64,000 nucleotides of DNA from Blastocatellia bacterium (GTDB lineage: Bacteria > Acidobacteriota > Blastocatellia > UBA7656): positions 1,248,715 to 1,312,714 of the forward strand of contig CAVXWP010000001.1 in NCBI GenBank assembly GCA_963765495.1, written 5' to 3'. The first letter of the stretch is position 1, and every line of letters starts with the position of its first letter. Positions 7,316-49,117 of the stretch are shown piece after piece. The notes under the pieces are model-generated. The model ran no database searches. It saw only the letters and a list, made by a program, of their open reading frames with translations, and was not told the origin of the DNA. Position numbers and translations under genes: made by a program.

Positions 7316-9106
7316 ATGATTATTCTTGGCATCAATGCTTATCACGGCGATGCTTCGGCGGCCATCATTTCAGACGGAGAGCTTATCGCCGCGATTGAAG
7401 AAGAACGCTTCAATCGCGTTAAGCATTGCGCCGGTTTCCCGGCGGCGTCTATACGCTATTGCCTGGAGGCGGCCGGTGTCAGCATCGAAGATGTCGAGCA
7501 CATAGGAATCTCGCGCGACCCGTCGGCGCACCTCCACAAAAAGATTCTGTTTGCGGCAACGCGCGCGGCTAAAAGCGTCTCGGGCTTTGATCGCGCGAGC
7601 AAAGAGGCGAGCGGTAAAAGCCCTCGCGGTATCTTTACGGCTGTGGCTGAAAGGCTCGCCAACGCCGGGCGGGTGCGCGACCTGAAAGAGGATCTGGCAA
7701 AGGCTCTGGGGGTAACAAAAAACAGCCTGCGGGCGGAATATCATAATGTCGAGCATCACGTAGCGCATCTGGCAAGCTCTTTCTTTGTTTCGCCTTTTAA
7801 CGAGGCGGCGCTCCTTTCAATAGACGGGTTCGGCGATTTCATCTCGACTATGTGGGGCATAGGCGAGGGAAATTCGATAGAAGTTCTCGGGCAGGTTGAA
7901 TATCCGCACTCGACGGGGATTTTGTACACGGCGACGACGCAGTTCCTGGGCTTTCCCTACTACGGAGATGAAGGCAAGGTAATGGGGCTGGCTCCTTACG
8001 GCAAGCCCCGTTTCATGGAGGAATTCCGCGACATAATCAGGACCGAAGAAGACGGGCACTTTCGCCTGAATTTGAACTACTTCCGCCATCACGCCGAGGG
8101 CGTAGACATGTCGTGGGACGAGGGGTCGCCGGTGATCGGGCGGATTTTCTCAGATGAATACGCGAGCCTCTTTGGCCCGCCGAGAGAAAAGAGCCAGCCG
8201 CTAACGGACCGCGAGCGCGATATAGCGGCAAGCCTTCAGCAGCGGCTCGAAGAGGTGGGATTTCATATCCTGAATCATTTGCATCAAAAGACGCGTCTCA
8301 CTGATCTCGGGCTTTCGGGCGGAGTCGCTTACAACTCGGTCCTGAACGGCAAGATACTGCTCAACACGCCGTTTCGCCGCGTCTTCATTCAACCGGCGGC
8401 GGGCGATAGCGGCACCGCGCTTGGCGTCTGCTATCAAATCTATAACGGCCTCTTGAACCGGGCGCGCAGTTTCGTTATGGAGGGCGCTTACACCGGGCCC
8501 GAGTTTTCCGATGAAGAGATACGCCGCGAATTGGAGTTGAGCGAGTTGCAGTTTGAGACGTATTCCGATAGCGAAGTCACAAAGCGCGCGGCCCGTGATA
8601 TTGCCTCGGGCGCTGTGATGGGGTGGTTTCAGGGGCGCGTGGAGTTTGGCCCTCGCGCGCTCGGCAACCGCTCGATCATCGTCGATCCGCGCCGCGCCGA
8701 TATGAAAGAGATACTCAACGAACGCATCAAGAAGCGCGAGCCGTTTCGCCCCTTCGCTCCATCAATTCTTGAAGAGCGGGTCGGAGATTATTTCGAGCAG
8801 ACGCACCCTGCTCCCACGATGCTTATGGTCTATCAGATCAGGCCCGAACGACGCGCAGAGATTCCAGCCGTCACCCACGTTGACGGGTCGGGGCGTTTGC
8901 AGACTGTAACCAGAGAGGTAAACCCGCGCTATTATCAGTTGATCTCGGATTTTTATGAGCTTACCGGCGTGCCCGTTGTGCTCAATACTTCTTTCAATGA
9001 AAACGAGCCGATAGTCTGCACTCCTCGTCACGCGATTGACTGTTTTTTGAAGACTCGAATGGATGTGCTCTATCTTGGCAATCACGCCGTTCGAAGGGCA
9101 AATTAA
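7316..9106 (+). CDS. Carbamoyltransferase, NodU/CmcH family
   Basis: Start set at the ATG at 7316 ([37 protein letters not shown], the family N-terminal signature). The 7145 start in the ORF track reads through the MITE. Confidence 0.85.
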
Positions 9107-9120
9107 AAGGAATCAGGTTT

Positions 9121-11208
<2,088 letters not shown>

Positions 11209-31064: not shown

Positions 31065-31128
31065 TTAGACAGGAATAACAGGATTTTAATTTTGTTCAAT
31101 CCAATCAAATCCTGTTATTCCTGTCTAA
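31065..31128. repeat. 21-bp perfect inverted repeat between convergent rmlD and the 761-aa AAA+ gene (bidirectional terminator candidate)
   Basis: ttagacaggaataacaggatt (31065-31085) with aatcctgttattcctgtctaa (31108-31128). The right arm encodes the last residues LDRNNRI of the minus-strand gene. Confidence 0.75.
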
Positions 31129-33390
31129 GATTATTTGCCCGCCTTCATCAATATCTGCCTGAATCTCTACATTGGTCATATCAGCGTGCTCGATCAGAAA
31201 TCTGGCAAGCGGCGCGACTATCATTTGCTCGATGGTCCGTTGCAAAGGGCGCGCTCCGTATCGCGCATCGAATCCTTCCCTTGCCAATCGTTTGACCAGC
31301 CTTTCGGTCCACGTCAGACGAATGCCTGCCTGACTCAACCCTTCCCGCTTGGAAATCTCCGAGAGTTCCTTGCCTGTTATCGCCAGAATCTTCTCTTCGT
31401 CCAGAGCATCGAATCTGACTATACGGTCAATGCGATTGAAGAATTCCGGGCGGAAAAATGACTGCGCCTCCGCGCTGTAAGATCGCGCCGCGCTGTTGTC
31501 AAAGCCTACCTGTTGCAGCTTATCTGCTCCGATGTTGGAAGTCATTATGATGATTGCGCTGCGAAAAGTCGTAGCGCGTCCAAAGCGGTCGGTCAATCGC
31601 CCTTCATCGAAAACGCTCAACAGCACATCGAATACTTCCGGGTCGGCCTTTTCTATTTCGTCCAGCAGCACGACCGCGAACGGCTGGCGGCGCATTCGTT
31701 TTATCAATTCGCCAGGCAACCCGTCGCTATTGCTTATCAATCTTTCAGCCGCGCCCGCGCCGCTGTACTCGCTCATGTCGAGGCGGACAAGGCGATCCTT
31801 TTCTTCGCCGTGGCCAAAAATAAATTCGGAAATGCTGCGGGCAAGTTCGGTCTTTCCCACCCCCGTGGGGCCGCAAAAAAGCATGACCCCGATGGGGCGG
31901 CCGGGGTCGTTCAATCCAGCTTTGAATGTTGTGACCAGATTGGCACCCGCCCGACACGCATCCTCCTGTCCGATGATCCGGCGGCTGAAATACTCGACGA
32001 CCTCCGACCGGTTCATCGGCAAATCATCGCGGAGGAAAAGCTCGGGCAACCCCGTCTGCTTTGTGAACTGATCGGTGACAGCGTCCGCGCTCACACTCTT
32101 TGAGTGATCGAGCGAGTGCGCGAGTCGGGCGCGTTCGAACAGGTCGGACAGAAACAGAATCGTCTTTCCCGGAAATGCTTGATACGGGACGAAGCGATGA
32201 AAGAGCCTGTAGACCAGTCCCGCAAGATCGGTTTCAGCCTCGATGTTATTGCTCAATTCCAGAGACCTGATCGAACGATTGAGAATCGAGAGACTCTTTG
32301 CGCGGTCGAACGGTTCGAGATTTAAGACCTGAAACAAATCTACAAGCCCGGGCAGCAATCTGCGACAGGCGTCGAGTTCTGCGGGTGTGGCCTCGGCTAT
32401 GAGTTGAAGCTCTCCGCGCTCAAGGTAAGGCATAAGAAACGCGGCGATTGACGCCTGCGGCTCGCGGCTTGCGGTCACAATCAAATCGAGAAGGTTTCCG
32501 ACCGCGAGCGCGCCGCTTATATCTGACAGTTCCTCGATCACGCGCTCGCACCGCGCCTCCCACTGACCGAGGTACTGCATCCCGGCGATCAGTCGGCCCC
32601 CGCCGGTCAGCCAGTAGCGTTGCCGATGCGGTGTTTCGCCCTCTTCAATCTTTTCGGCCTGCCGTTCGATGCTGCGCACCGCATTGACCAGCAGCGTAGT
32701 CTTACCTGATCCCGTTTCGCCAACGATGATGACGTTTGCTTTCTCTTTGCTGATTCGCTCGGCGAGGTCCGCGACTTCGCGTTCGCGTTCCCAGGCTTGA
32801 GAATATTGCCGTCTCATGCTCGGCTCACCCAGCGGTTCGGCCACGCTTGTGAGCGTCGAAAGATCGGGCTTGTACGCGTATGAGCGCTCTTTTCTGGGTA
32901 TATGCAATACAATCTCGTCAAGCATTACGGATTTCGGCGGCAGGTAGCCGGACAACTGGAGCGGAGTCATCCCCTTCAGACTTTCCTGAACATAGGTAGT
33001 TACAAGCTCTTTCAGACTCCTGGCTTCGTAGTAATAAAACCTTATTCCGAGTATCGGCAGCGCGCAGACGAGCAGCCCGCCTTCCTGTCGTCCGTGAACG
33101 CAGGCGATGCGCAAAAGTATCGGCTCATCGCCCGGGAAGATGCGATTTTCAACGCGATACTCCGGGCGCACGGCTACCTTGAAATGCACAAGACGAGCGT
33201 CAAGGAAATCGGGCTCCGCCTGCCAGGGATACTCTTCATACATCCAGACGATATATGCTTTCAGCTGAGCCGCCGCATCAGAGAGCGTCCTGCCGACGGC
33301 CGCGACAGGCGGGTCGTATTCGACGAGGCTGGCCGTGTGGCTGCCTTCGAAGTCTTCCCAGCTAAGATATGGAAATCGGTATGTCGGCAT
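31105..33390 (-). CDS. Clp/Hsp100-like double-AAA+ ATPase, paralogue C (761 aa, no C-terminal extension)
   Basis: D1: Walker A GETGSGKT, ClpA/B-type [18 protein letters not shown], and the Walker B position reads [10 protein letters not shown]. D2: [30 protein letters not shown]. The N-terminal ~190 aa is not AAA+. Confidence 0.8.
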   Translation of the reverse strand: [761 protein letters not shown]

Positions 33391-33400
33391 CTGAATATTG

Positions 33401-36400
33401 TTAATCCTGTCTAAACTCTAAAGGCAAATCGAGCCTCGCAAGCGCGAAGGCGCGAAGCTCGTGAGCGGTTGGCAGCTTCAAGGTTATAAGCCCCGACCGC
33501 AAATCGAGCGTATGACCCTGCTCTTCATAAATGCGAATCACCGGCAGCAACCGCGTGTCACTAAATCCCCTGAGAGATGTCTTCGCCCCTTCGCCTTCGA
33601 TGACGGGCAAGACCCTCACCTGAGCAGGAAAGATGTTCTCCTGCTCGGTATAAAACAGGTGCGTGCCCTCCTCGGTCTTCGCAAGCTTTTGCGCCTGCGC
33701 CCCTGTGATGAGCAACGCGCTCGCATTGTTTTCCAAAATCTCGCCGTCATTTTCCACCCCGGTTACATCCAATCCCAACTGGTTCCCAAACAGCTTTGTG
33801 TAAAGTTTGATGAGCCTTGCGCGGATGTCGCTTCCAGATTCGCTCAACGAACGGATGTGAATGAGGGCGCGGTTGTGTTTCGGATCAACGGGATCGGCTA
33901 TCGTTTCGAGCAGGCTCGTTTCTCGAAGCGCCACCGCCAGTTGATCTTCGATCTTGTCTCCGTAAGGCGGAGAGTTCGCCGCAAGTTCGCGCAGATAGCC
34001 CTGAACGGAAGGGGCCGCGATTATCTGTTTCCACAAATCCTGCTCGTCTGTCTGTCTCAATGTCATCTGTCCGGCGGCGAGGCTCCGCCCCCTGGAGCGA
34101 GCCTCGTGTCTTTCCTCCGGTCTGTCAATTCGTTCGGCGAGGCGGCGGCTGATGTTTCGGATGCGGCGAGCCTGTTCCTGAATCAGAAAGTAGCGATACT
34201 GATCCGGCTCAATCGCCTCGGGCGTGATCGGGCCTTCGGGGCGCAGGTGCGTTACCTCCGCTTCGATTCGGTCAACCGCCAAATCGATCCGGGCAAGGAC
34301 CGCCCTCGAATCCAAAGCCTCAATTATCACTCTCAAATAATCATCGGTCCTGGCACCGATAAGCGCATCCACGCTTACGGCGAGTCCCGTCTTGTCTGGG
34401 TAGAGGCTCACGATAGTGGGCGCGTCGGGTCTGAGAAGCGCGAGTCTTGCTGCGATTGGTTGAGTCAGTTGCTGTTCGAGCGCCCGCTTCAAGGCTCGCG
34501 CGCCCAGTTGCGGGTGGTAGCCCTCGTCTATGATTCGCTCCATCGCGCGCTCGTCCACACGAAGCACGCATTTTCTTCTGACGAGCCCCTCGCGGGCAAA
34601 GACTTCTTGAATAAGCGTTTGCGCGATCTTTCCTACATCTTCGCGGCGCAGCCTTTCGAAAGGGATCACGCGATCAAGCCGATTGAAGAATTCAGGCTTG
34701 AAGAATTTCTCGGCAGCCTGAATGTATGCCGATGCCTCGCGCGCGTGGTCCTGCCGAAAACCGAGATTGCTGCTCGCCTCTCTCACGCCGAGATTTGAAG
34801 TCATAATCAGGATCGCGTTTGTGAAATCTGCGGTGCGCCCGAGTGCGTCGGTCAATCGCCCGTCGCCCATCACCTGTAGCAGCAGATTGAACACATCGGG
34901 GTGGGCCTTTTCTATCTCGTCGAGCAGAACCACGGCGAAGGGGCGGCGGCGTATTGCGCTCGTCAGCAGACCCTCCGGCTGATCGAACGTGCCTACGAGG
35001 CGAGCCACCGAATAGGCCGAAGAGTATTCGTTCATGTCGAAACGCAGCATCTTATCGGCGTCGCCGAACAGATAACGCGCCACAGACTTTGCGCATTGCG
35101 TCTTGCCTACGCCGGTGGGGCCGAGGAAAAGGAAGGAGGCAATCGGGCGGTTGGGGTCGTTGAGTCTGGCTCTGGCTACGCACACGGCATCGGTAACGGC
35201 CTCGATGGCCTCGGTCTGCCCGATCACTTCATTGCCAATCGCCTCTATCACATCCCAGCGTTCGAGGCTTGCGCGGTTGCTCAAAAAAGTCATCCGAAGC
35301 CCGCTTTTTGCGTGGAATTCTTCGAGCACGGCTTCTCGAAGTATGCCTATGTTGCGGTACTTCACCGCGAGTTGATTTAGGAAAGCGGCGGCCTTGCCCG
35401 GAAACGCCGCGTCGCGCACATAGCGGCGCTCAAGATCGAGCACGGCGGGCAATACCTCTATGGCGAAATGGCAGTTGTGTTGTTGTTCGAGTCTTCTGAT
35501 CAGGCTGATGAGTATGCGAATCACATCACCTTCACCCGGCTCTCTTACCTGAATTACATGGAACAGATCGGCAAAGCCGCGATCTTTTTCCTGGAGAACG
35601 CGATAGGCTTCCGGGGTTATTTCGGCAAGCAGGCGAAATTGCCGCTTCTCGACAAATGGTTTCAATACGTCGGCCACGCTGAGAGTCGAACTGCTCGTCA
35701 CACCCGCATGAAAGAGTCCCAACAGGTCATCGAAGTAAAGTGTATGCTCGCGCTTTTCGGCTTCTTTCAGGATTGCGAGCAATCTGTTTTCCCACTGGCC
35801 TACATAAGACATGCCGGAGATGAGCCTCTGCGGAGAAAGCAGCCAGAGGTTTCTCTTTGACGAGTACCGCGATTTTTTTCGCGCCACTTTCTGATAGACA
35901 TACTCGTGAATGATGGCGGTCTTCCCAACCATTCGCGGACCCGCGAGCAGAACCGGGCGTTTGTCGACTCCCGAAAGCAGTCTGGTGATTTCTTCCACCT
36001 CGCGGTCGCGGCAGATCACCCGGCTCAACTCGTCAGGGAAGAGATGGTCAAGGCATCTGCCTACGGTGTCAAGCTCGGTCTCTCCGTCAAGCTCGGCGCT
36101 TGTGGTGAGAGCAGCGAATATCAATTCCTGTGGCGGCGTGGCTAACTGAGGCGGATGAATATCAAGATCGAGCGTAGTGACCCATGCCTTTCCTTCGACC
36201 GACATCTCTTCGGGTTTTGGCGCGCTCTTGGGGTCTCTCTTCTCCTTTTCACGGAAGTAGAGGACCAGATTTTCCGTAGCCCTGTCGGCGAGCGTCTCTC
36301 CCCGGCCCACTTCAAACCATAGATCGGGCACGCTCGGCGAAAAGGCCACCTTTCGGTCAAGCGCTTCGAAGGTAGCGATCAGGAAACGGCAGGCGACTTT

Positions 36401-36667
36401 ACGGCTCCCCAGATCGAGCACGAGCTTGAGCAGGTGATCTTCCACGACGGGTGAGAAAGAAAAGGCGGCTAATTCTTCGTGGCGCATCGACTTGCCCAGC
36501 CGCTTGATCTCCTCTCTGAGGTCCTTGACGAGTCTGTTCACAGTGCGGTTCAGGTCTTCGCCTCTCGCCACGGGGTCGGAAAAAAAGAGCGGGCGAACAG
36601 TGTAGAGGGGGGCGGGCGTCCCTTCGGGAGACAGCTTCTCGATGTAAAGAGGAATCGTGATGTTCAT
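33401..36667 (-). CDS. Clp/Hsp100-like double-AAA+ ATPase, paralogue B (1088 aa) with a release-factor-like C-terminal module
   Basis: D1: [34 protein letters not shown]. D2: [37 protein letters not shown]. About 300 aa of extra C-terminal sequence. Confidence 0.8.
   Translation of the reverse strand: [1088 protein letters not shown]
33404..34315 (-). other. Class-I release-factor-like module (domains 1, 2 and 4; GGQ domain absent) at the C-terminus of paralogue B
   Basis: Residues ~785-1088. [45 protein letters not shown] parallels RF1 [70 protein letters not shown] parallels [43 protein letters not shown] parallels [19 protein letters not shown]. No GGQ motif. Confidence 0.5.
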
Positions 36668-36722: not shown

Positions 36723-39700
36723 TTATGTCGCAAAGAGCGAATTTGCGTCTTTGATGATGCGCTGTTCGATGGCCCCGCTTATTGCCTCGCTGATCTCCTG
36801 CCAGGAAAGCTTCTTCCTTAGCGCCGTGTCTTCGATGACAAACTCTTTCTGATTGAACAGGCGGCGTTTCTCTTGCGCTCCAACCGAGCCGCGTCGCTCA
36901 AGCCCCGCCGGAGGCTGATAACCGGCTATGGCTGCCTCGCTCGTGTGAACAAGGCAGGGCGTAGATTGTTTCTCTTCGACAAACAGATGCAGACCGCGCT
37001 CGGGCTCGTATCTGGGATAGGCGAGCGGCGCGCTTATCCCAAGCGCGATACCGACTACTTCCTTCCGGGCCGAGGCAAAAAATTCCTTTACATTCTCAAC
37101 CTTCTGTTTGATTGTCGGGCGTCCGAGCAGTTCGAACATCTCGATCTGTTGTTCGCTCTTGTCGCCCCTCTTTTGATCCGAATCGGTTGCCTGGCTTGCG
37201 AACTTGAAGACCTGAAGACTGGCCCCGATGTTATTGGCTGCGCGGCAGTATGCTTCCGCCAGTTCGAACAGCCATTTTGGATTTTCGCCGTAGACGGCAA
37301 GCGTGGCATAATCCGGCTTCTTGAATTGCAACGCGTATATGCAAAGCAGCACCTCGTCCCACTCTCCAGACAGCGCCAATAACAGGGCCGCAAGCTTTTC
37401 TTTCTCGCCACTCACCCGGCCGTAGACTGCAAGTAATGCTTTGTCTTCGAGGGCCGATATCTTTTCCATAAACGACTTCAACCGATCCATTCCGAGCTTG
37501 AGTCTGGGAAGTTGAGCCAGTCTCTCCATATCTTCGGCTCGTTTCCAGCCTTGCCCGGAGACTCTCTTTTTGAGTCGTTCAAGATTGAATATTTCGTTTT
37601 GCGCCTCAAGTACCGCCGGGCTGTGCTCAAGCCTCTGAGAGTTGCGGCGAATCTCGGCCACCTCTCTTGCGATCTCGCCCAATCCCCGGTCGGCTCTGGC
37701 GGCGAGCCGTTTGCTTTCGTCTTCCTTTCTCAGTTGCGCGGCAATTGAGAGCCGGTCGCCCTCTACGCCGACATCGGCTGAGAGCGATTCATTCGAAGAT
37801 TGCGTGTTCAAGACTTCGGCAAGCGGGACAAGAAGCTCGCGCTCGATTACTCGCTTCAAGGGGCGCGCACCATAACGCGAATCGTACCCTTTGCGCGCAA
37901 GATAGCCCGCCACATCATCTGCAATATTCAGCCCGACCGCGCGATAAAGTATGCCGTCGCGGTTCTTGAGCAACTCAAGCTCGCGTTTGGCAATGCTCAG
38001 AATAGTCTGCTCGTCGAGCGGAGCAAAGGGCACTATCCGATCTATGCGGTTGAAGAATTCGGGCCGGACAAAGGCGCGAACTTCGCTCAGAAAATGTTCG
38101 CGCGCCCTTGCCGCTTCATCCGACTCTTGCCCGAATCCTATGGAAGAACGCCGGAAAGATTCGGCCCCGAGATTGCTCGTCATGATGACAACCGAATTCG
38201 AGAAATCGGCCACACGTCCCTGCGCGTCGGTCAGCCGGCCTTCGCCAAGAACCTGAAGCAGCAGATCGAAAAACGACGGGTGAGCCTTTTCGAATTCATC
38301 CAGCAGGACCACGGCAAAGGGCTGCTCGCGCACTTTCGAAGTGAGCAATCCTTCCGCCCCCCAGACGCCGCCTATCAGGCGAGTGACCGCAAGCGGGCTG
38401 GCGTATTCGCTCATGTCGAATCTGATCATCCTCTCTTTGCTGCGGAAGAGAAACTCGGCAAGCGAGCGTGCCATCTCCGTCTTACCCACGCCGGTTGGCC
38501 CAATAAACATCAGCGATGCGATAGGCTTGCGCGGGCGAGCGAGCCGCGCCCTCACAATGGCGAGCAAATCCACGATGAGCGATACGGCATCCATTTGCCC
38601 GATCACCCTTTCGGCGAACCATTTCGCAGTCTCGCCCAGATCGAGCCTTTCAGTCGGATTCAACAGAAACAGCGGCAGCCCTGTCTCATTCGAAAAGGCA
38701 TTAATCACATCTTCAACCGAAAGCGGCTTCCCCGGCTCGCGGTCCTCAAAGAGGTTCCTGAGAAAACGTAACGGGCGACCGGGATAAGCCGAGTAGGTAG
38801 CGTACCTGCGATGCAGGCGATCGGTTGTTTCTAAGCCGTCAATATCTATGGCTACATCTTTAGGGCCGCTCGATTGGAGGGCATAACCGAGGAGGATGGC
38901 TTTGCCCTTTTCAATTGAAGGCTCTTCAATCTTGATTTGCGAAAACGCTTCGAGCAGTTGAGGGTCGTCGCGCTCGATTACGGGCAATTGCTCGGACGTG
39001 CATTCAGAGACGGCGAGCAAATCCCCCCGGCTGATGTAGGGGCGAAGGAAGGCGGCTATACCCTGGCTGCCGGATGCGCTTTTCCCAACCTCCATGAGTT
39101 CAAGGAGATTTCCAAGATGAAGTATCGCCTTCTGTTTCGATGCTTCGCGCCACAGCCGCCCGCAGCGCTCCTGCCACATGCCAAATCCCGACATGCCTGC
39201 TACCAGACGCGAGCCGCTCGTGGCCCAGAATGGAGTGCGACCCAGATTGAAATCGTGCCGTCGTCTGACCAACTCGTGCAAGGCTGCGGTCTTGCCTACG
39301 CCCGACGGCCCAACCAGCAATACGCTGCGCGGATTGCTCCCGGCCAGGGCTTCGGCTATGCGCGTCACGGTGTCGTCGAGTTCAAATCTCTGAGCCAGGC
39401 GCTCGCGTGTCAGATCGGTAGCGACCACATCGAGGACAGATTTATTCTCCTCTTTTCTCCCTTCGGACCCGTCCGCGATCTGTTTCGGAGCACGGATTGT
39501 AGCCGTGACGCTTGTCTGATCAAGCATCGTCATGCGATTTCTCTGAAGCCAGATGAGGTCTCCGAGCGAACCCGCCTTCTTGATTCTGAGCAGGTGCGCG
39601 TGGATGTTTGATGAAACCACCTGCTCGAACGTGTCGGGATCGCGCTCGACTACAAGTATGCCAAGCGCCGGAACATAAGCGAGATAACCATCATCGGCAT

Positions 39701-40016
39701 GTTGCCAGCGAATCAGATCAAAGCTCAATCGCGCAGGCTCGCGCCAGGCAACGGACCGCGAAGGGGGATCGAGGTGGATGGTTACTTCGTCGATTTCAGG
39801 GCTGATCCCAGAAGGGTCCGCGCCGCGCCTCATGTGCAGCGCGAGCGGCGGCGAGGTCTCAAGTATTCGAATCGCGTTTGCCTTGAGCGCATCAAGCAAC
39901 TTCTTTGCGTCGGCGCCGTATCGGGACACTTCCGGGAAGAAGAGCGTCTCGCTGATAAAGGTATCATTTTCCAGGCGTTGAATTATTGCTGTAAGACGAA
40001 AATCATGTTTTGGCAT
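36723..40016 (-). CDS. Clp/Hsp100-like double-AAA+ ATPase, paralogue A (1097 aa) with a release-factor-like C-terminal module
   Basis: D1: [26 protein letters not shown], and the Walker B position reads [11 protein letters not shown]. D2: [37 protein letters not shown]. About 320 aa of extra C-terminal sequence. Confidence 0.8.
   Translation of the reverse strand: [1097 protein letters not shown]
36726..37694 (-). other. Class-I release-factor-like module (GGQ domain absent) at the C-terminus of paralogue A
   Basis: Residues ~775-1097. [39 protein letters not shown] parallels RF [63 protein letters not shown] parallels the ISG..Y..L..E.GGHRV pattern. [15 protein letters not shown] parallels [34 protein letters not shown] parallels [19 protein letters not shown]. 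No GGQ. Confidence 0.5.
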
Positions 40017-40155
40017 AACAGGTTTCGGCTCGTAAAAGATACCTCACTCGTTTCGTAATTGAAAACTGAATGGCCCTGTGGCCCGACAAAGTAATTCTTC
40101 TCATTTTCAAGCTGGCCTTGAATCTGCGACGGTCGCTTATTATACTCGCACCGCT

Positions 40156-40941
40156 ATGGCAGAATCGAATGTGACAATCAGAGAATGCGTATCGATTGAT
40201 GATTTCAAGCAGTGCGTCGAATTCGAGCGCGCCATCTATAACGATCAGGACGTGAACATCATGCCTATCCGTCTTTACATGCTCTCGAAGGCTTGTAAAG
40301 CTCCAACCATCGGCGCATTTGATGAGACGGGGCAGATGGTAGGATTTGTCCACACGGCGCTCGCTCTGATGCACGGGCGCGTAATTTATCATTCGCACCT
40401 GGCCGCCGTGGCCGAAAAGTTACGCCACAGGGATATAGGATTTCGAATGAAGCTCGCGCAACGCGAGCGGGCGCTCGATGCGGGCATCTCGCTGATCGTC
40501 TGGACCTTCGATCCCATCCATTCACGTAGCGCGCATTTCAACATAAACAAACTGGGCGCGATAATGAGGCGCTACGAGCCAAATTATTACGGCGAAGGTC
40601 TTTCGACTGTTTTCGATCCGGGTGTCCCGTCCGATCGCCTTTACGCTCACTGGTGGATAAAATCGCCTCACGTACTTTCGGTGCTTGCGGGCAATCGCCC
40701 CCATCTTGATGAGGTGTCGGTTTCGGTCACTATTCCCGAAGATGTTCAGGCCGTGCGGGCCAGTTCGCCCGAAGAGCATGTTAAATGGCGTTTCCGGGCA
40801 CGCGAAGATTTGCAGCGAGAGCTTTCCTACGACCATATCATTCGCGGGTTTGAGCGCGATCAGGAAAAAGGCGTGGGCCGCTACCTGTTCGGACCCGATG
40901 AGGACCAGTTCCATTTCAGCGCCTACGATGGTCAATCGTGA
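40156..40941 (+). CDS. GNAT-like acyltransferase, partner of the OSBS/NSAR enolase
   Basis: Start set at the ATG at 40156 (MAESNVTIREC...). About 260 aa. HLAAVAEKLRHRDIGFRMKLAQRERALDAGISLIVWTFDP resembles an acetyltransferase-fold core. Located immediately upstream of the enolase-superfamily gene. Confidence 0.5.
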   Translation: MAESNVTIRECVSIDDFKQCVEFERAIYNDQDVNIMPIRLYMLSKACKAPTIGAFDETGQMVGFVHTALALMHGRVIYHSHLAAVAEKLRHRDIGFRMKLAQRERALDAGISLIVWTFDPIHSRSAHFNINKLGAIMRRYEPNYYGEGLSTVFDPGVPSDRLYAHWWIKSPHVLSVLAGNRPHLDEVSVSVTIPEDVQAVRASSPEEHVKWRFRAREDLQRELSYDHIIRGFERDQEKGVGRYLFGPDEDQFHFSAYDGQS

Positions 40942-42982: not shown

Positions 42983-43155
42983 TAGGCAGTAGGCAGTTAT
43001 TATGAAGCCATGATCAGATCCGCGTAAATCCGCCCGACCCGCGTCCGTCCTGGCCTATTTCTATTCGCCCGATTATGCAGTTGCAATTAGACTGACAATT
43101 GGCTTCACTCAACTGCCCACTGCCCACTGCCTACTGCTTACTGCCTACTGCCTGC
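42979..43155. repeat. Heptamer-built palindrome (GCAGTAG type) between convergent fabG and htrA
   Basis: Left arm gtagtaggcagtaggcagtt (42979-42998, starting in the fabG stop codon). Right arm aactgcccactgcccactgcctactgcttactgcctactgcctgc (43111-43155). Loop ~110 nt. Confidence 0.8.
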
Positions 43156-44690
43156 TAATCAAATGTTACCGTGATGAAAGTCATCTGCCCGCCGCGTTCG
43201 ATTTGAAGCGCTACCTGATTGGTCTTGATCGAATTTATAGCTTCGACCAGGTTTTCGACGGATGTTACTTCCACGGTGTCTATGCGGTGAATGACATCGC
43301 CGTGACGGATACCCGCCTCGGAAGCGGGGCTGCCGGGCGCTACGGATTGGACCATCGCGCCGTGCGGCACACTCAGCTTCATTTGCTCGGCCATTTCGGG
43401 TGTTACGGTCTCGGCGGTTATACCAAGCCGCGTGGATTGAGGGTGCGCCTCATCGCCCTGGCTTTCAGAGTCGTTGCGAGCCGTATTGACATCTGCCGGA
43501 CGTTCGGTGACTTCTACTTTGGCCGAAAGCGGCTGCCCGTTTCGCACATAATCGACCTGCGCAGATTCGCCCACGGAAGTTTCGGCTACGACCTCCATCA
43601 ACTCTCGTGGCGTTCTCACTTTCTTACCGTTAAAGGCAAGTATCACATCCCCGCTCTGCAATCCTGCGTGGCCGGCGGGGCTTTGAGGATCGCTCAGGCG
43701 ATCAATCAACACGCCGGAATTCGGTTCCAGATTGAGCGCGTGGGCCGTGGCTTCGTCGAGCGGCCTGATAATCACCCCGAGGTATCCGCGAGTGACCTTG
43801 CCGTTTTTGACCAGTTTGTTAAAGACATTACGCACCACGTTTGATGCAATGGCAAAACCGATACCCACGCTGCTGCCCGTCTGGGAAAATATCAAGGTGT
43901 TTATGCCGATCACTTCTCCCTGCATGCTGACGAGCGGACCGCCGGAATTTCCCGGATTGATCGAGGCATCGGTCTGGATAAAGCGGCTGTATTGAGAGCC
44001 GCGAGTGTTAAGCTCGCGCCCGGTAGCTGAGACAATGCCTGCGGTCAGGGTTTGCGCCAGCCCGAAAGGGCTTCCGAGAGCCAGCACCCAGTCGCCCTGT
44101 TCGACTTCATCCGAATCTCCGAGCGTGGTCGTGGGGAGTCCATCGCCTTCGATCTTGATGACGGCGATGTCGGTCTCGGGGTCCGTGCCTACGAGTTTCG
44201 CTCGTATGGTGCGTCCGTCGGCAGTCGTCACTTCGATCCTGTCGGCGTGGCCCACTACGTGATCGTTCGTCAATATATACCCGTCGGGTGTGACGATAAA
44301 CCCCGAGCCTGTTCCGGGCCTTCGCCTGGGGGTGTTCTGATCGGGGCTGCCGAAGTTGAACAGATCGGGCAAGCCGGACTCACGCGAAACTGTTTCGACT
44401 ACGTTGATGTTGACGACGGCGGGCTTTATAGCCTTTGCAATCTCGCGGAACGAAACTGATAGCTCGACCGGCGAAGGAGCCGCAACCGAATTGGCCGTTC
44501 CTGGTGGAGGAAGCACCGGAACGTTTGAAGCGATTTTGTGAGTCGATGAACGCGCGATGGCGAATATAATAAAACCTGAAATCAGGGCGAGCGTGACCCA
44601 TATCCATGCCTGATCTCTCCATCGCCTGCCTCTAGGTTTCGGGGTTTGATCTTCGGGGTAAGGTTCTGTTCCGGTGTTTATGTCTTGCAT
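43155..44690 (-). CDS. HtrA/DegP/DegQ-family periplasmic serine protease with two PDZ domains
   Basis: 511 aa. N-terminal TM/signal segment. Catalytic TNDHVV, D and GNSGGPL. Two PDZ-like regions (GVLIDRL...GLQSGDVI and GAMVQSV...GIRHGDVI). Confidence 0.85.
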   Translation of the reverse strand: MQDINTGTEPYPEDQTPKPRGRRWRDQAWIWVTLALISGFIIFAIARSSTHKIASNVPVLPPPGTANSVAAPSPVELSVSFREIAKAIKPAVVNINVVETVSRESGLPDLFNFGSPDQNTPRRRPGTGSGFIVTPDGYILTNDHVVGHADRIEVTTADGRTIRAKLVGTDPETDIAVIKIEGDGLPTTTLGDSDEVEQGDWVLALGSPFGLAQTLTAGIVSATGRELNTRGSQYSRFIQTDASINPGNSGGPLVSMQGEVIGINTLIFSQTGSSVGIGFAIASNVVRNVFNKLVKNGKVTRGYLGVIIRPLDEATAHALNLEPNSGVLIDRLSDPQSPAGHAGLQSGDVILAFNGKKVRTPRELMEVVAETSVGESAQVDYVRNGQPLSAKVEVTERPADVNTARNDSESQGDEAHPQSTRLGITAETVTPEMAEQMKLSVPHGAMVQSVAPGSPASEAGIRHGDVIHRIDTVEVTSVENLVEAINSIKTNQVALQIERGGQMTFITVTFD

Positions 44691-45062: not shown

Positions 45063-46454
45063 TCATACCAGCTGGTCGGTCACCCTTCGCGAGCGGGTGA
45101 GGCCGTAGGTCTTCAGTTGCCGGTAGAGCGTGCTTGGCGAGATGCCAAGTATTTCGGATGCTTTCCCCTGATGCCATCCCGTCTGCTCAAGTACCGTGAG
45201 TATCTGTTTCTTCTTCAACTCGTCGAGATTGCCCGGTTGGATGTCTTCATCCACAAATCCCGTCTGACGGCTTGAACTGTGAGTGCGAATCTCGATGGGC
45301 AAATCTTCCGGGAGAATCAGGTTGTCGCTTGCCAGTATGATCGCGCGCTCTATGACGTTCCGCATCTCGCGCACATTGCCGGGCCAGGAATAATTTATCA
45401 TTACCTCCATAGCCTCTTCGCTGATCTGAAAACTGCTGCCCCCGCTCACTCGCCCCAGGAAATGTTCCGCGAGCGAAGGGATGTCTTCGGGCCGTTCCCT
45501 GAGCGGTGGCAGGAGGATTGTAAAATTGTTTATGCGGAACAGGAGATCGGATCGGAATTTGCCTTCCGCCACATACTGATTCAGATCGCGATTGGTCGCG
45601 GCCACAAACCGCACGTCCACCTCGACTTTTCTGGTGCCGCCCACGCGGAAAAAGGTCTGAGTTTCAAGCACGCGCAACAGCTTGGACTGAAGCGTCAGGT
45701 TCATCTCGCCTATCTCATCCAGAAAGAGCGTGCCGCCGTGCGCAAGCTCCAACAGCCCGAGCTTTCGCTTTCGCGCTCCGGTGAATGCGCCTGCTTCATA
45801 GCCGAACAGTTCGCTTTCGAGCAACGTCTCTTGAATCGCCGCGCAGCTTATATCGATAAACGGCCCTTCGCGCCGGTTTGAAAAGCAATGAATAGTGTTG
45901 GCCACAAGTTCTTTGCCGGTCCCGGATTCTCCTGTCACAAGTACCGTGGCATTCGAGACGGCTACCTTCCTGACAAGCGACATCACATCGAGCATCTTCT
46001 TGCTGCGAACGACGATGTCGGGCGCTTTCTCTTTGTAAGTCAGCCGGGATTGAAGTATCAGGTTTTCACGTCGAAGCTGGCGTTTCTCGTATGCCTTGCA
46101 GAGTATGGCTTCAAGCTCGCGGATATGGCACGGCTTTGTGAGGTAGTCGTATGCTCCAAGCTTCATGGCCTGAAGCGCGGTCTCTACCGTGGCATGCCCG
46201 GTCATCAGAAGAACTTCTGGAGGCTGTTCCATCTGTCTGAGTTCGCGAAGAACGTCTATGCCGCCACGCACGGGCATCATTATATCGAGCAAGGCGACGT
46301 CGAATTCGCTCTCTCGCGCTACCTTGAGGGCCGCCTCTCCGTCGTGGACGAGCGTGACCTGATGGCCAAGTCGTAACAACTCTTTCTGAAGGACCAGCCC
46401 CAGATTCTTTTCGTCCTCCGCGATCAGAAGTTTTATACTTGCATTTGAACTCAC
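45063..46454 (-). CDS. Sigma-54-dependent response regulator (NtrC family)
   Basis: 463 aa. REC domain (VALLDIMMP), AAA+ GESGTGKE, GAFTGA motif and a C-terminal HTH (ASEILGISPSTLYRQLK). Confidence 0.9.
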   Translation of the reverse strand: MSSNASIKLLIAEDEKNLGLVLQKELLRLGHQVTLVHDGEAALKVARESEFDVALLDIMMPVRGGIDVLRELRQMEQPPEVLLMTGHATVETALQAMKLGAYDYLTKPCHIRELEAILCKAYEKRQLRRENLILQSRLTYKEKAPDIVVRSKKMLDVMSLVRKVAVSNATVLVTGESGTGKELVANTIHCFSNRREGPFIDISCAAIQETLLESELFGYEAGAFTGARKRKLGLLELAHGGTLFLDEIGEMNLTLQSKLLRVLETQTFFRVGGTRKVEVDVRFVAATNRDLNQYVAEGKFRSDLLFRINNFTILLPPLRERPEDIPSLAEHFLGRVSGGSSFQISEEAMEVMINYSWPGNVREMRNVIERAIILASDNLILPEDLPIEIRTHSSSRQTGFVDEDIQPGNLDELKKKQILTVLEQTGWHQGKASEILGISPSTLYRQLKTYGLTRSRRVTDQLV

Positions 46455-49117
46455 TGTACACCCTCCATTCTAATTACTTCTCCTTCGAATAATTCGTGCG
46501 AACTCACCGGCTCTTCCTCAAAAGACAGGGGCAGTAAGACTTTGAACGTGCTGCCTACGCCTTCGGTCGAATCGACTTCCATCTTCCCTCCGTGTTCTGA
46601 AACGATGCCGTAGCAGACCGAAAGACCAAGACCCGTACCTCTGCCGAGGGGCTTGGTTGTAAAGAAAGGATCGAAAATCTTTTGCAGATGAGGAGCCGAT
46701 ATCCCACAACCCGTGTCCGTAAATTCGACCGATACGTTACGCTCGGGGCTCGCTTCGCTCCAGCCCGTTTTTATCGTCAGCGTGCCGTTGCCCTCCATCG
46801 CGTCGAAGGCGTTTGAGATCAAAGCGATGAATACCTGTTTCATCTGCCCTTCGTTGACCTGGACGGGCGTAAGCGTTTCATCGAGCAGTTTGACGACATT
46901 CATCTTGCCGAGCTTCGGATGATGTTTGATCAGTTGCAGCGTCTGCTCGATGATCTGATTGATATCGCTCGAAAGTTTTTCGGCCTGGCGCTGATGCGAG
47001 AAGTCGAGCAGGCTGTTTGTGATCGTCTTGCATCTGAAGGCTTCGTCCCGAACGATTTGCAGATATTCACTGAAATCCTGATTCAATTCCTGATCCTGCA
47101 ATTCGTCTACGCGGGCGGTCAGCGCCTCGGCGCAGGCCGCTATGGTCGCAAGCGGGTTGTTAAGCTCGTGGACAACGCCCGCGGCAAGCCTCCCGATCGA
47201 GGCAAGCTTTTCGGCGTGAATGACCGCCTCGTTCATCTTCTTTTGCTCGGTCACGTCTTCGCCTACGGTGATGACGTGAGTGACCTCGGCGTTATCTACG
47301 CGCATGGGTATTTTACTGATCTTCCAGACCTTCTTATGGCCTTCGACGAAAGACTCCTGCTCCATGCGGACCATTTCGCCGCTACGGAACACATCTACGA
47401 ATTCGCCTTCGAGTTTGCGGCGCGGCTGGCGCGTCAGGACGTGAAAGACGTTTCGCCCGAGGACTTCATCGCGACTGATGCCCCGGCCTCCGACCTCGCG
47501 ATTCCGGTTCCAGGCCACGATGCGCATATCGCGATCCACCACGTAAAGCGAGACGGGAAGCGAGTCAATTATCTTTTCGGTAAACCGTTTCTGTTCTTCG
47601 ATCTCTCGCGTGCGGCGGCTCACCTCGACCGCAAGGTTTATGGAAGTGTCTTTTGTGCTTTGATAGACCTCTGTATTTCTGATGGCGAGGCTGAGTTGCT
47701 GGGCGACGGCTCCGAGCAGTTTTTGATCGTCTGCGCTGAAAGGGCGTGGAGCGTGGCTTGCGCAAATGAGCGCGCCAAGCAGCGATTCATCGAAGATGAG
47801 CGGCACTATGGTTTCGATTGAAATATTCGGATCGCGCAGGAGGCGCTCTCTGACGCGGGTTTCAATGGTGGACTGGCCACCGAAATCCGAGCCCAGATAA
47901 CTCATCGCGCGCTCTTCGTTATACCAGTTGTTTGCCCCGTATTTCTCTTCGAGCGAGCGCGCGTAAATAGCCGAAGCGAGGCTTTCGGGTTCGTTTGCGG
48001 CCCGGACTACGACGGCGCAGATGTCGCATTCGAGGCTCTTGCCTACGCTGAAGACCGCATAGCCGAGCAACTCGTCCATTTCGAGCGAGGTCATGAGGTT
48101 GTTGCCGAGGTTATAGACAAAAGAAAGTTGAGCGGCGCTCTTTCTGGTTTCGACATATAGCCGGACATTTTCGAGCACGACGCTCAACTGATTGCAGATG
48201 GTTGTAAGCAACTCCGATTGCTGTTCGGGAAAACCCTTATGAGTGCGAGAGAACAGGCAAATCGCCCCGATGGCTTTGTCTTTTACACCTAAGGGGGCGC
48301 ATACGACGCTTTGAATCTTGCTCAACAGTTCCCCGGAAAACCCTTTGCGGGCGGAATCGGGGCGAAGTTCCAGCACTAAAGACCTGCCGTTCATCATCGG
48401 CGCGGTCTTCGAATAAAGGTCGAGCAGAGAGTGTCGGCTTTCATCATCGCCCGGGAAGCCTTCTGAGGCTACCACGTTCATGGACTGATTATCGTGATTT
48501 CTGAGGTAAACGACACCGGCATCGGCATTAAGATTCTTGACCAGGACCGCGAGCGTGCCTTTTATCAGGACATCGGGTTCGAGCGAGCTTGCAAGCACGC
48601 TTGAAACCGCGTGGAGAACATTCAATTGCTCGAATTTCTCTCTTAACTCGCGTTCGTTGCGATGGCTGCGAAGCTGCGCCTTTATACGCGAAAGCAACTC
48701 GGTCCTTTGATAAGGCCGGGTGATGTAATCGCTCGCGCCCGCGTTCAGGCAGGCCACTTTATCCTGCGGACGATGGCTCTTCGATATTATCGCTACGGGA
48801 AGCTCGGCGGTCGCCCGCGTCTGACGTATCTGTTTACAGAAGTCGAGCGCTTCCTGCGCCCAATTCAACCGCCGCAGGCTTTCGCCCGAATCGTCTTCGG
48901 CAGGCTCTATAGCTTTGGCCGCGATGCGAGATGCGTATATATCAATGATTACGAGCGAGACCTCGTTGGTATTGAGGAATTCTCGCGCCTCCTCGAAAGA
49001 GACGAACGTGTTTGATGTATAGCCTGTCGCCTGAAGCAAACGTTCTATTGCGCGGGCAGATTTGGCCTCATCTCCCAAAATCAGGAGGCGATCTGCTGAT
49101 TCGCCCTGGCTGGACAT
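46451..49117 (-). CDS. Cytoplasmic hybrid sensor histidine kinase (REC, GAF x2, PAS, HisKA, HATPase)
   Basis: 888 aa with no TM segment seen. N-terminal receiver-like domain (LVIIDIY...ISK), H-box HELNNPLATI and G2 box GTGLGLSV. 4-nt overlap with the RR gene. Confidence 0.8.
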   Translation of the reverse strand: MSSQGESADRLLILGDEAKSARAIERLLQATGYTSNTFVSFEEAREFLNTNEVSLVIIDIYASRIAAKAIEPAEDDSGESLRRLNWAQEALDFCKQIRQTRATAELPVAIISKSHRPQDKVACLNAGASDYITRPYQRTELLSRIKAQLRSHRNERELREKFEQLNVLHAVSSVLASSLEPDVLIKGTLAVLVKNLNADAGVVYLRNHDNQSMNVVASEGFPGDDESRHSLLDLYSKTAPMMNGRSLVLELRPDSARKGFSGELLSKIQSVVCAPLGVKDKAIGAICLFSRTHKGFPEQQSELLTTICNQLSVVLENVRLYVETRKSAAQLSFVYNLGNNLMTSLEMDELLGYAVFSVGKSLECDICAVVVRAANEPESLASAIYARSLEEKYGANNWYNEERAMSYLGSDFGGQSTIETRVRERLLRDPNISIETIVPLIFDESLLGALICASHAPRPFSADDQKLLGAVAQQLSLAIRNTEVYQSTKDTSINLAVEVSRRTREIEEQKRFTEKIIDSLPVSLYVVDRDMRIVAWNRNREVGGRGISRDEVLGRNVFHVLTRQPRRKLEGEFVDVFRSGEMVRMEQESFVEGHKKVWKISKIPMRVDNAEVTHVITVGEDVTEQKKMNEAVIHAEKLASIGRLAAGVVHELNNPLATIAACAEALTARVDELQDQELNQDFSEYLQIVRDEAFRCKTITNSLLDFSHQRQAEKLSSDINQIIEQTLQLIKHHPKLGKMNVVKLLDETLTPVQVNEGQMKQVFIALISNAFDAMEGNGTLTIKTGWSEASPERNVSVEFTDTGCGISAPHLQKIFDPFFTTKPLGRGTGLGLSVCYGIVSEHGGKMEVDSTEGVGSTFKVLLPLSFEEEPVSSHELFEGEVIRMEGVQ

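Follow-up and report, generated by a model that had tools for sequence, protein, structure and literature searches.

We analyzed a 64,000-nucleotide (nt) stretch of a Blastocatellia bacterium genome (GenBank assembly GCA_963765495.1, contig CAVXWP010000001.1, positions 1,248,715 to 1,312,714; hereafter the window), in which three tandem genes, A, B and C, encode paralogous Clp/Hsp100-type AAA+ proteins. Amino acids (aa) ~779–1097 of protein A are very probably a diverged homolog of a bacterial class-I release factor (RF). This arm retains RF domain 1 together with domains 2 and 4, which make up the codon-recognition superdomain, and a conserved arginine-rich loop of ~23 residues stands where RFs carry the ~110-residue GGQ domain 3. 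A preliminary description, made from the sequence alone, had proposed a GGQ-less RF-like tail in the 1,097-aa paralog at 36726-37694, equivalent to residues 775–1097 of A. Profile–sequence, profile–profile and predicted-structure comparisons now bear this out. The proposal had been staked on the tails of A and B being alignable and on RF matches in profile and structure searches, and both were found.

Searched as single sequences, the A and B tails gave no Pfam or NCBIfam match and no match to Protein Data Bank (PDB) sequences by phmmer, and BLASTP of one tail against the other aligned only ERGLHLF/EEGTHLF (E = 0.36). Word-indexed protein searches with the A tail alone or with a 26-tail alignment returned a single 203-aa fragment. 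By comparison, when the A tail was searched exhaustively with HMMER, 407 clusters (50% identity) were collected at E ≤ 1e-3, of which 276 reached E ≤ 1e-10. All 65 full-length matches were A orthologs of ~1,043–1,162 aa, giving 65 full-length ortholog clusters for the protein.

An alignment of 26 A-type tails (alignment A1) was the basis of both the PDB profile search and the AlphaFold2 (AF2) model. Against all PDB sequences, its profile ranked RF2 and RF1 entries at positions 1–11, with E values from 8.6e-4 (2ihr, the best) to 0.043 (4v67), followed only by coiled-coil proteins at E > 0.1. Profile positions 45–201 align with RF2 residues 2–161, that is, domain 1 and the start of domain 2 (domain E = 0.0032). 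Positions 45–150 match Thermus thermophilus RF2 residues 2 to ~100, which make up RF domain 1; what had been described as a ~120-residue coiled coil is actually the counterpart of this domain. Further along, positions 240–260 align with RF2 171–191 (‘isgplafprfeeEaGlHvfke’ versus ‘VKGENAYGLLSPEAGVHRLVR’) and positions 298–312 with RF2 312–326. For RF1 of Thermotoga maritima (1rq0), positions 132–198, 236–276 and 287–343 pair with residues 58–130, 139–180 and 270–333, the last segment placing ‘ekRRtYnlerkvieD’ against ‘EKIRTYNFPQNRVTDHR’. All these alignments are colinear and skip RF residues ~190–270/300, corresponding to the GGQ domain 3. The four peptides on which the original comparison had been built are all present in the open reading frame (ORF) 40016..36723, namely, PDYATLAVYGENPKW...FKF at aa 901–939, VVGIALGISAPLAYPRYEPERGLHLF at aa 987–1012, STPCLVHTSEAAIAGYQP at aa 1018–1035 and KRRLFNQ...EQRI at aa 1050–1087, and the profile alignments give the same four RF pairings. 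In Pfam, neither the window tail nor any of the 26 members reached the gathering scores of PCRF or RF-1; the sole RF-type match was PCRF at E = 0.23 in one of the 26, with none for the window tail.

Template-free AF2 prediction of the A tail from alignment A1 yielded a model with a mean predicted local distance difference test (pLDDT) score of 87.7 and a predicted template modeling (pTM) score of 0.82, with pLDDT values below 50 only at tail residues 200–211. The model runs from a hairpin continuing the D2-small domain through a five-helix bundle, a strand–helix–strand unit, a β-sheet and a ~20-residue loop to the C-terminal part, which consists of three short strands and a final helix. All five predicted helices of the domain 1 equivalent have pLDDT values above 90. 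When the model was compared to the PDB using Foldseek, ranks 1–37 were without exception class-I RFs (RF2, RF1, mtRF1 and mtRF1a), with alignments of 353–418 columns that span the whole RF. The best match was 5mdw_7 (E = 1.2e-8, probability 1.00, template modeling (TM) score ~0.45), while the RF homolog PrfH (9mor_A) followed at rank 39 (E = 0.022). The same model found nothing at E ≤ 1e-3 in a viral structure library.

Residue conservation, measured over 66 A tails, is concentrated at RF motifs. Y923 and E1006 (both 100%), G1008, H1010 and R1052 (98% each) are invariant or nearly so, and L919 (94%), V1023 (91%), D1063 (88%), Y/F1054 (87%) and R1051 (86%) are strongly conserved. The top positions correspond to the RF motifs L-x-R-M-Y, E-S-G-V-H-R, R-T-Y-N and D-H-R; the tyrosine of helix α5, which aligns with a conserved RF motif, is among the most conserved residues of the tail. 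Elements of the RF codon reader fare differently. The HTS triplet, which the preliminary description took as a retained feature, is poorly kept at H1024/T1025/S1026 (H 20%, with E 35% and D 24%; T 41%; S 45%). Of its second motif, R-x-(Y/F)-N, the arginine and the aromatic residue hold and the asparagine does not (N 27%, D 38%). In the equivalent of the RF PxT/SPF loop (aa 1013–1020), every column has at most 25% identity, and the five-residue glycine-rich ‘pgagg’ cap ahead of α5 is absent from the A alignment. The loop replacing domain 3 has a signature of its own, Y1033-x-P-P-x-G-I-x-R-R/K-G-x-I (Y1033 80%, P1035 74%, P1036 86%, R1041 73%), and the spacing from E-x-G-x-H to R-R-x-Y is ~45 aa, compared to ~130 aa from E-x-G-x-H to R-x-Y in Escherichia coli RF1. 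Neither the A nor the B tail of the window contains GGQ; the tripeptide occurs sporadically and at nonaligned positions in four of 66 A tails and four of 147 B tails. In short, what the A arm preserves of an RF is the scaffold, while the stop-codon reader and the hydrolase are lost. The arm falls outside RF1, RF2 and PrfH because it has neither GGQ nor their anticodon loop and stays below the Pfam thresholds.

Two A orthologs carry an insertion of 40–65 residues exactly at the RF domain 3 site (P0095, aa ~1025–1075; P0116, aa ~1015–1090). The top Pfam match of both inserts is Ribosomal_L12, the L7/L12 C-terminal domain (E = 9e-4 and 5e-4, respectively), at scores under the gathering score, and the remaining A orthologs examined have no such insert. 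These L7/L12-like segments form a circumstantial tie between the arm and translation.

The arm of A has a counterpart in B. With B tails gathered from 29 operon-carrying loci, hhalign aligned the A and B tails (66 and 30 sequences) over 126 columns with 93.7% probability (E = 1.8e-7), and smaller alignments gave 73.5% (E = 3e-5); both comparisons lie over the domain 2/4 part. Against PDB sequences, the B-tail profile returned only coiled-coil noise and did not reach RFs, so that the RF nature of B rests on hhalign to A and on the structural model. The AF2 model of the B tail (pLDDT 91.5, pTM 0.90) retrieved RFs as its top 48 PDB matches in Foldseek, led by 1rq0_A (E = 1.8e-6), with PrfH 9mor_A at E = 0.0097, and B retains the core motifs E-x-G-T-H, V-x-R-x-Y and D. 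The A and B tails are the same module. Protein C has none; it ends just past the equivalent of the β-hairpin that follows D2-small in A, and in the 23 loci sharing the A-B-C order, its orthologs are 742–841 aa long and tailless (lengths counted from the first in-frame start, a few of which overlap the end of B). The homology of the tails of the 1,097- and 1,088-aa paralogs and their absence from the 761-aa one had, thus, been correctly recognized. That the copy in A is the more divergent one is contradicted by the data, as the A profile reaches PDB RFs and that of B does not, and its best Foldseek E value is 1.2e-8 versus 1.8e-6 for B. An independent copy, as also suggested, is unlikely. The ~200-residue N termini align in hhalign with probabilities of 95% (A–B), 97% (A–C) and 83% (B–C), and the cores are 37–39% identical, with A slightly nearer to C. 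Because the A and B tails are homologous and all three proteins are paralogous from the N-terminal domain onward, the simpler reading is one tail in the common ancestor, which C lost or never acquired, rather than independent acquisition.

All three proteins have two AAA+ modules (Pfam AAA_2 and ClpB_D2-small). In A, AAA_2 covers aa 497–660 (1.3e-44) and ClpB_D2-small aa 667–738, and a second P-loop lies at aa 236–243. The Walker A motifs of its two modules are separated by 270 residues, a ClpA-like spacing without a ClpB-length middle domain. In NCBIfam, the ClpA model TIGR02639 aligns with aa 178–734, but A, like B and C, stays far below the equivalog cutoffs of ClpA, ClpB, ClpV, ClpG and ClpK, the best scores of A being 342 bits for ClpB (cutoff 1,232) and 311 for ClpA (cutoff 993). 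In the first module, Walker A is intact across the families, while the Walker B acidic pair is degenerate, reading G-N in A (G 97%, N 76% over the 66 orthologs), D-D in B and [E/D/G]-[N/S] in C. The second-module Walker B D-E pair is present in 100% of A, B and C sequences (D573 and E574 in A). Judging from these motifs, the first ATPase site of all three proteins probably binds nucleotide without hydrolyzing it. Aromatic pore loops occur in A, B and C, for C only in the first pore loop; the first-module aromatic residue (F/Y) is found in 100% of the A orthologs. Each protein also has a conserved [LIV]-G-F tripeptide (G 98%, F 88% and L 11% in the A family) at the position of the ClpP-docking loop of ClpA (IGL) and ClpC (VGF). 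The best PDB match of the second module of A is a ClpB chimera with a ClpA segment (5ofo), which scored above wild-type ClpB and aligned its ClpA-derived ‘RKSIGLIHQ’ to ‘rrssigfgqe’ of A.

The N-terminal domain shared by the three proteins is unannotated, and neither Clp_N nor any other Pfam domain was detected in aa 1–200 of A, B or C at E ≤ 5. The A-family N-terminal profile matched the HicB-like protein TTHA1756 (2yzt) weakly in the PDB (E = 0.27, A aa 94–142), and the sequence pattern suggests two tandem HicB-like β-β-β-α units.

The A-B-C order was found in ~30 of the loci examined. Hosts are Blastocatellia and Pyrinomonadaceae (Acidobacteriota), Holophagae, Planctomycetota and Verrucomicrobiota, and the closest relative of the window, at 64% identity, is a Blastocatellia metagenome-assembled genome (MAG). 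The operon also occurs in a few Firmicutes-labeled MAGs at 40–54% identity (loci L004 and L047), with gene A alone in L005. The labels of L004, L005 and L047 are Heliobacteriaceae, Clostridia and Selenomonadaceae, and these occurrences point to horizontal transfer or binning error. Public records name these proteins only ‘AAA family ATPase’ or ‘ClpA/ClpC’ and leave the arm unannotated.

The three window ORFs are separated by 55 nt (A–B) and 10 nt (B–C); further features are listed in Table 1. No fourth gene was conserved beside A-B-C among the loci examined, and no RF gene was found in the window and 80 loci. Around the operon, both the window and locus L082 carry ordinary genes of metabolism and regulation. 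In the window, a 287-aa ORF without Pfam match (40078-40941, plus strand) lies divergent from gene A, with an MR/MLE enolase-superfamily gene and a short-chain dehydrogenase coming after it. Farther upstream, the minus strand encodes an HtrA-like protease with two PDZ domains (43155-44690) and a σ54 response regulator with a GAF/PAS histidine kinase (45063-49117). None of the window flanking genes is conserved beside the operon elsewhere. At L082 (13404-14003; Acidobacteriota GCA_040754075.1), a 199-aa ORF without Pfam match sits between B and C, an arrangement seen neither in the window nor in most loci. The A-B-C order is not universal because in L083, a planctomycete contig, an AAA_15/AAA_21 ABC-type ATPase and a 297-aa protein without Pfam match, rather than A, precede B (7809-9817). 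We rejected an assignment to known defense systems; the PADLOC matches PDC-M37B and DolB fall in the second AAA+ module of A and in the AAA+/D2-small body of B and C, never in the tail.

Table 1 Features of the A-B-C operon in window coordinates.
Feature	Window position	Strand	Basis
Gene A, 1,097-aa ClpA/ClpC-like double-AAA+ ATPase with RF-like C-terminal arm	36723..40016	-	ORF list, Pfam, NCBIfam
A aa 1–205, family-specific N-terminal domain, common to B and C, not Clp_N	39402..40016	-	
A aa 206–470, first AAA+ module; Walker A GPSGVGKT intact, Walker B ILHLGN degenerate	38607..39401	-	
First-module Walker B, A aa 297–307 (B aa 308–318; C aa 293–303)	39096-39128 (A)	-	
A aa 471–744, second AAA+ module and D2-small; canonical Walker A, Walker B LLDEFEKAHP	37785..38606	-	
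A I626-G627-F628, [LIV]-G-F tripeptide	38133..38141	-	Motif conservation, PDB alignment
[LIV]-G-F in paralogs, B L635-G636-F637; C V628-G629-F630			Conserved motif
A aa 745–778, β-hairpin and linker behind D2-small	37683..37784	-	AF2 (strands 2–8 and 11–17, helix 20–31)
A aa 779–895, helical bundle, RF domain 1 equivalent	37332..37682	-	Profile alignment, AF2, Foldseek
A aa 896–1026, RF domain 2 equivalent, first half of the codon-recognition superdomain; contains Y923, E1006-x-G1008-x-H1010 and a poorly conserved, low-confidence insert (aa ~942–968)	36939..37331	-	Hidden Markov model alignments
A aa 1027–1049, short conserved loop at the RF GGQ domain 3 site	36870..36938	-	Conservation, spacing
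A aa 1050–1097, RF domain 4 equivalent; R1051-R1052-x-F1054, D1063, C-terminal helix	36726..36869	-	
Gene B, 1,088-aa paralog with homologous RF-like arm	33401..36667	-	
B N-terminal domain, shared with A and C	36038-36667	-	
B aa 748–1088, tail	33404-34426	-	hhalign to A tails, AF2, Foldseek
Gene C, 761-aa paralog without arm	31105..33390	-	
C N-terminal domain, shared with A and B	32791-33390	-	

The likely role of this architecture is a codon-independent A-site docking arm on a ClpP-coupled unfoldase, a mechanism to which, taken as a whole, we give roughly even credence. When an RF is bound to the ribosome, its domain 2/4 occupies the A site of the 30S subunit and its domain 1 faces solvent on the factor-binding side; PrfH, or RF2 together with ArfA, senses an abnormal A site. 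A, B and C would form a mixed hexamer, probably able to dock ClpP, and the RF-like arms would place domain 2/4 in the ribosomal A site independently of any stop codon, in a manner similar to PrfH or RF2–ArfA. Because the arm is tethered via the N terminus of domain 1, domain 2/4 could enter the A site while the ATPase ring remains outside, on the side where factors bind. An arm that lacks PxT/SPF and GGQ would neither sense a stop codon nor release peptide, but would, instead, sense A-site occupancy or state. Unfolding of a protein on the ribosome, or disassembly of a stalled or idle ribosome, would then be the work of the motor, with the polypeptide probably passed on to ClpP. While the homology and predicted fold of the arm, its loss of GGQ and the conservation of the motifs and of the operon are shown by the data, ribosome binding, hetero-oligomerization, ClpP coupling and the substrate of A, B and C are what we infer here. 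More specifically, the system might be a hard-wired counterpart of Pelota–ABCE1 or Vms1–Cdc48, in which a dead RF mimic on a hetero-hexameric ClpP-coupled unfoldase recognizes abnormal or vacant A sites and drives ATP-dependent extraction and degradation or ribosome dismantling, a version that we put forward only tentatively.

Several observations weigh against this proposal or against the homology beneath it. Sequence similarity to RFs is marginal at the profile–sequence level (E ~1e-3), single sequences and the B-tail profile fail to detect RFs, and overall TM scores against RFs reach only ~0.45, although modest values are partly expected because the RF targets have an extra ~110-residue domain and RF domains shift relative to each other. 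A convergent resemblance, or an artifact of coiled-coil composition and AlphaFold bias, would account for these figures, for a best alignment that lies partly in a helical region and for the failure of any single member to match Pfam PCRF or RF-1 beyond the one hit at E = 0.23. We, nevertheless, regard it as highly improbable. The match to RF1 and RF2 extends over three distinct colinear segments, among them β-strand motifs outside the helices. For the independent A and B models, built from different alignments, nearly all matches at E ≤ 1e-3 are RFs. The viral structure library gave no match at this threshold, and no templates entered the prediction.

Other objections concern function rather than descent. 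The stop-codon-contacting elements are lost or variable (HTS histidine, PxT/SPF loop and α5 cap), and the conserved arm residues may simply form the core that holds the 2/4 superdomain together. The A site lies at a great distance from the nascent-chain exit, which poses a substrate problem; no ClpP gene adjoins the operon in any locus examined; ClpP docking hangs on one tripeptide; and A-site binding by the arm is predicted by analogy with RFs. An RF-derived arm that works off ribosomes, recruited to bind substrates or adaptors, to act as a regulatory lid or to set the order of the subunits in a mixed hexamer, is a less likely possibility. It would fit the loss or variability of the codon-reading elements, the coincidence of the conserved residues with the RF structural core and the conserved loop Y-x-P-P-x-G-I-x-R-R-G, which has no RF counterpart, and accessory domains in Clp ATPases commonly serve adaptor binding. 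Against it stand the three noncatalytic RF domains, kept in RF order in both paralogs and across several phyla, which exceeds the needs of an assembly element, and the L7/L12-like segment at the domain 3 site in two orthologs. Improbable in our view is that the operon is a conflict or stress system, for abortive infection or ribosome turnover in starvation, whose arms dock to shut off translation or degrade ribosomal proteins rather than for ribosome rescue. Its patchy distribution, including a few Clostridia, Heliobacteriaceae and Selenomonadaceae MAGs, its self-contained three-gene form with variable flanks and the PADLOC matches PDC-M37B and DolB would suit such a system, but these matches lie in AAA+ regions and not in the tail, the neighbors in the window and L082 are ordinary metabolic genes rather than defense islands, and viral structural relatives were not found.

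If the arm still docks in the A site as proposed, A-site sensing in bacteria would be coupled directly and physically to an unfoldase or protease driven by ATP. Rescue or turnover of ribosomes, or a shut-off of translation, would thereby gain a route that can be put to the test in Acidobacteriota, Planctomycetota and Verrucomicrobiota. The arm family is also a natural experiment on an RF codon-recognition superdomain working without GGQ. It bears on the origin of the GGQ-domain insertion into this superdomain, since the arm could preserve a form of the codon-recognition module that predates the insertion.

Among known systems, RF1 and RF2 (PCRF PF03462 plus RF-1 PF00472) share with the arm the domain 1 bundle and the domain 2/4 superdomain in the same order, the E-x-G-x-H, R-x-Y and D motifs and the α5 tyrosine. 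Unlike them, the arm has no domain 3 or GGQ, no conserved PxT/SPF loop and a deleted α5 cap, is fused to the C terminus of a 745-residue AAA+ body and lies below all Pfam thresholds. In PrfH, the GGQ domain is present and domain 1 is missing; the arm is its reverse, with domain 1 kept and GGQ lost, and PrfH has no ATPase fusion. As the RF homolog of the RtcB–PrfH rescue and repair module, PrfH senses damaged ribosomes (PMC9304027, PMC12829566), and it is the nearest precedent for the docking proposed here. It resembles the arm as an RF paralog whose codon-recognition superdomain has been repurposed to an abnormal A site (PMC9304027, PMC12829566), a function that for the arm is proposed. ArfB, ICT1, C12orf65 and MRPS35 derive from the bacterial RF architecture by truncation (PMC6514570). 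Of its domains, the GGQ-type domain 3 alone is left in them (inactive in MRPS35), and domains 1, 2 and 4 are lost, so the truncation of the arm is complementary to theirs. ClpA and ClpC share with A the two AAA+ modules, D2-small, the Walker A spacing and the [LIV]-G-F position. A differs in an N-terminal domain that is not Clp_N, in its degenerate first Walker B and in scores far below the equivalog cutoffs, and the A-B-C system differs in its three tandem paralogous subunits and the 340–350-residue RF-like C-terminal arm.

In the literature searched, no Clp or other AAA+ protein was described as carrying an RF-like domain. Because it is built around the catalytic domain, a survey of how RFs evolved (PMC6514570) would miss GGQ-less versions, and it mentions AAA+ proteins only with Cdc48. 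We see here a Clp/Hsp100 unfoldase whose accessory domain is new and, at the same time, a new GGQ-less branch of the bacterial RF superfamily. Pelota/Dom34–ABCE1 and Vms1–Cdc48 offer a functional analogy only, as pairings of an RF paralog and an ATPase on stalled ribosomes; the catalytic glutamine is missing from Dom34, and Vms1 partners with Cdc48 (PMC6514570). Pelota/Dom34 and Vms1 have the unrelated aeRF1 fold and are separate polypeptides from their ATPases, whereas the arm of A is of the bacterial type and covalently fused to its motor.

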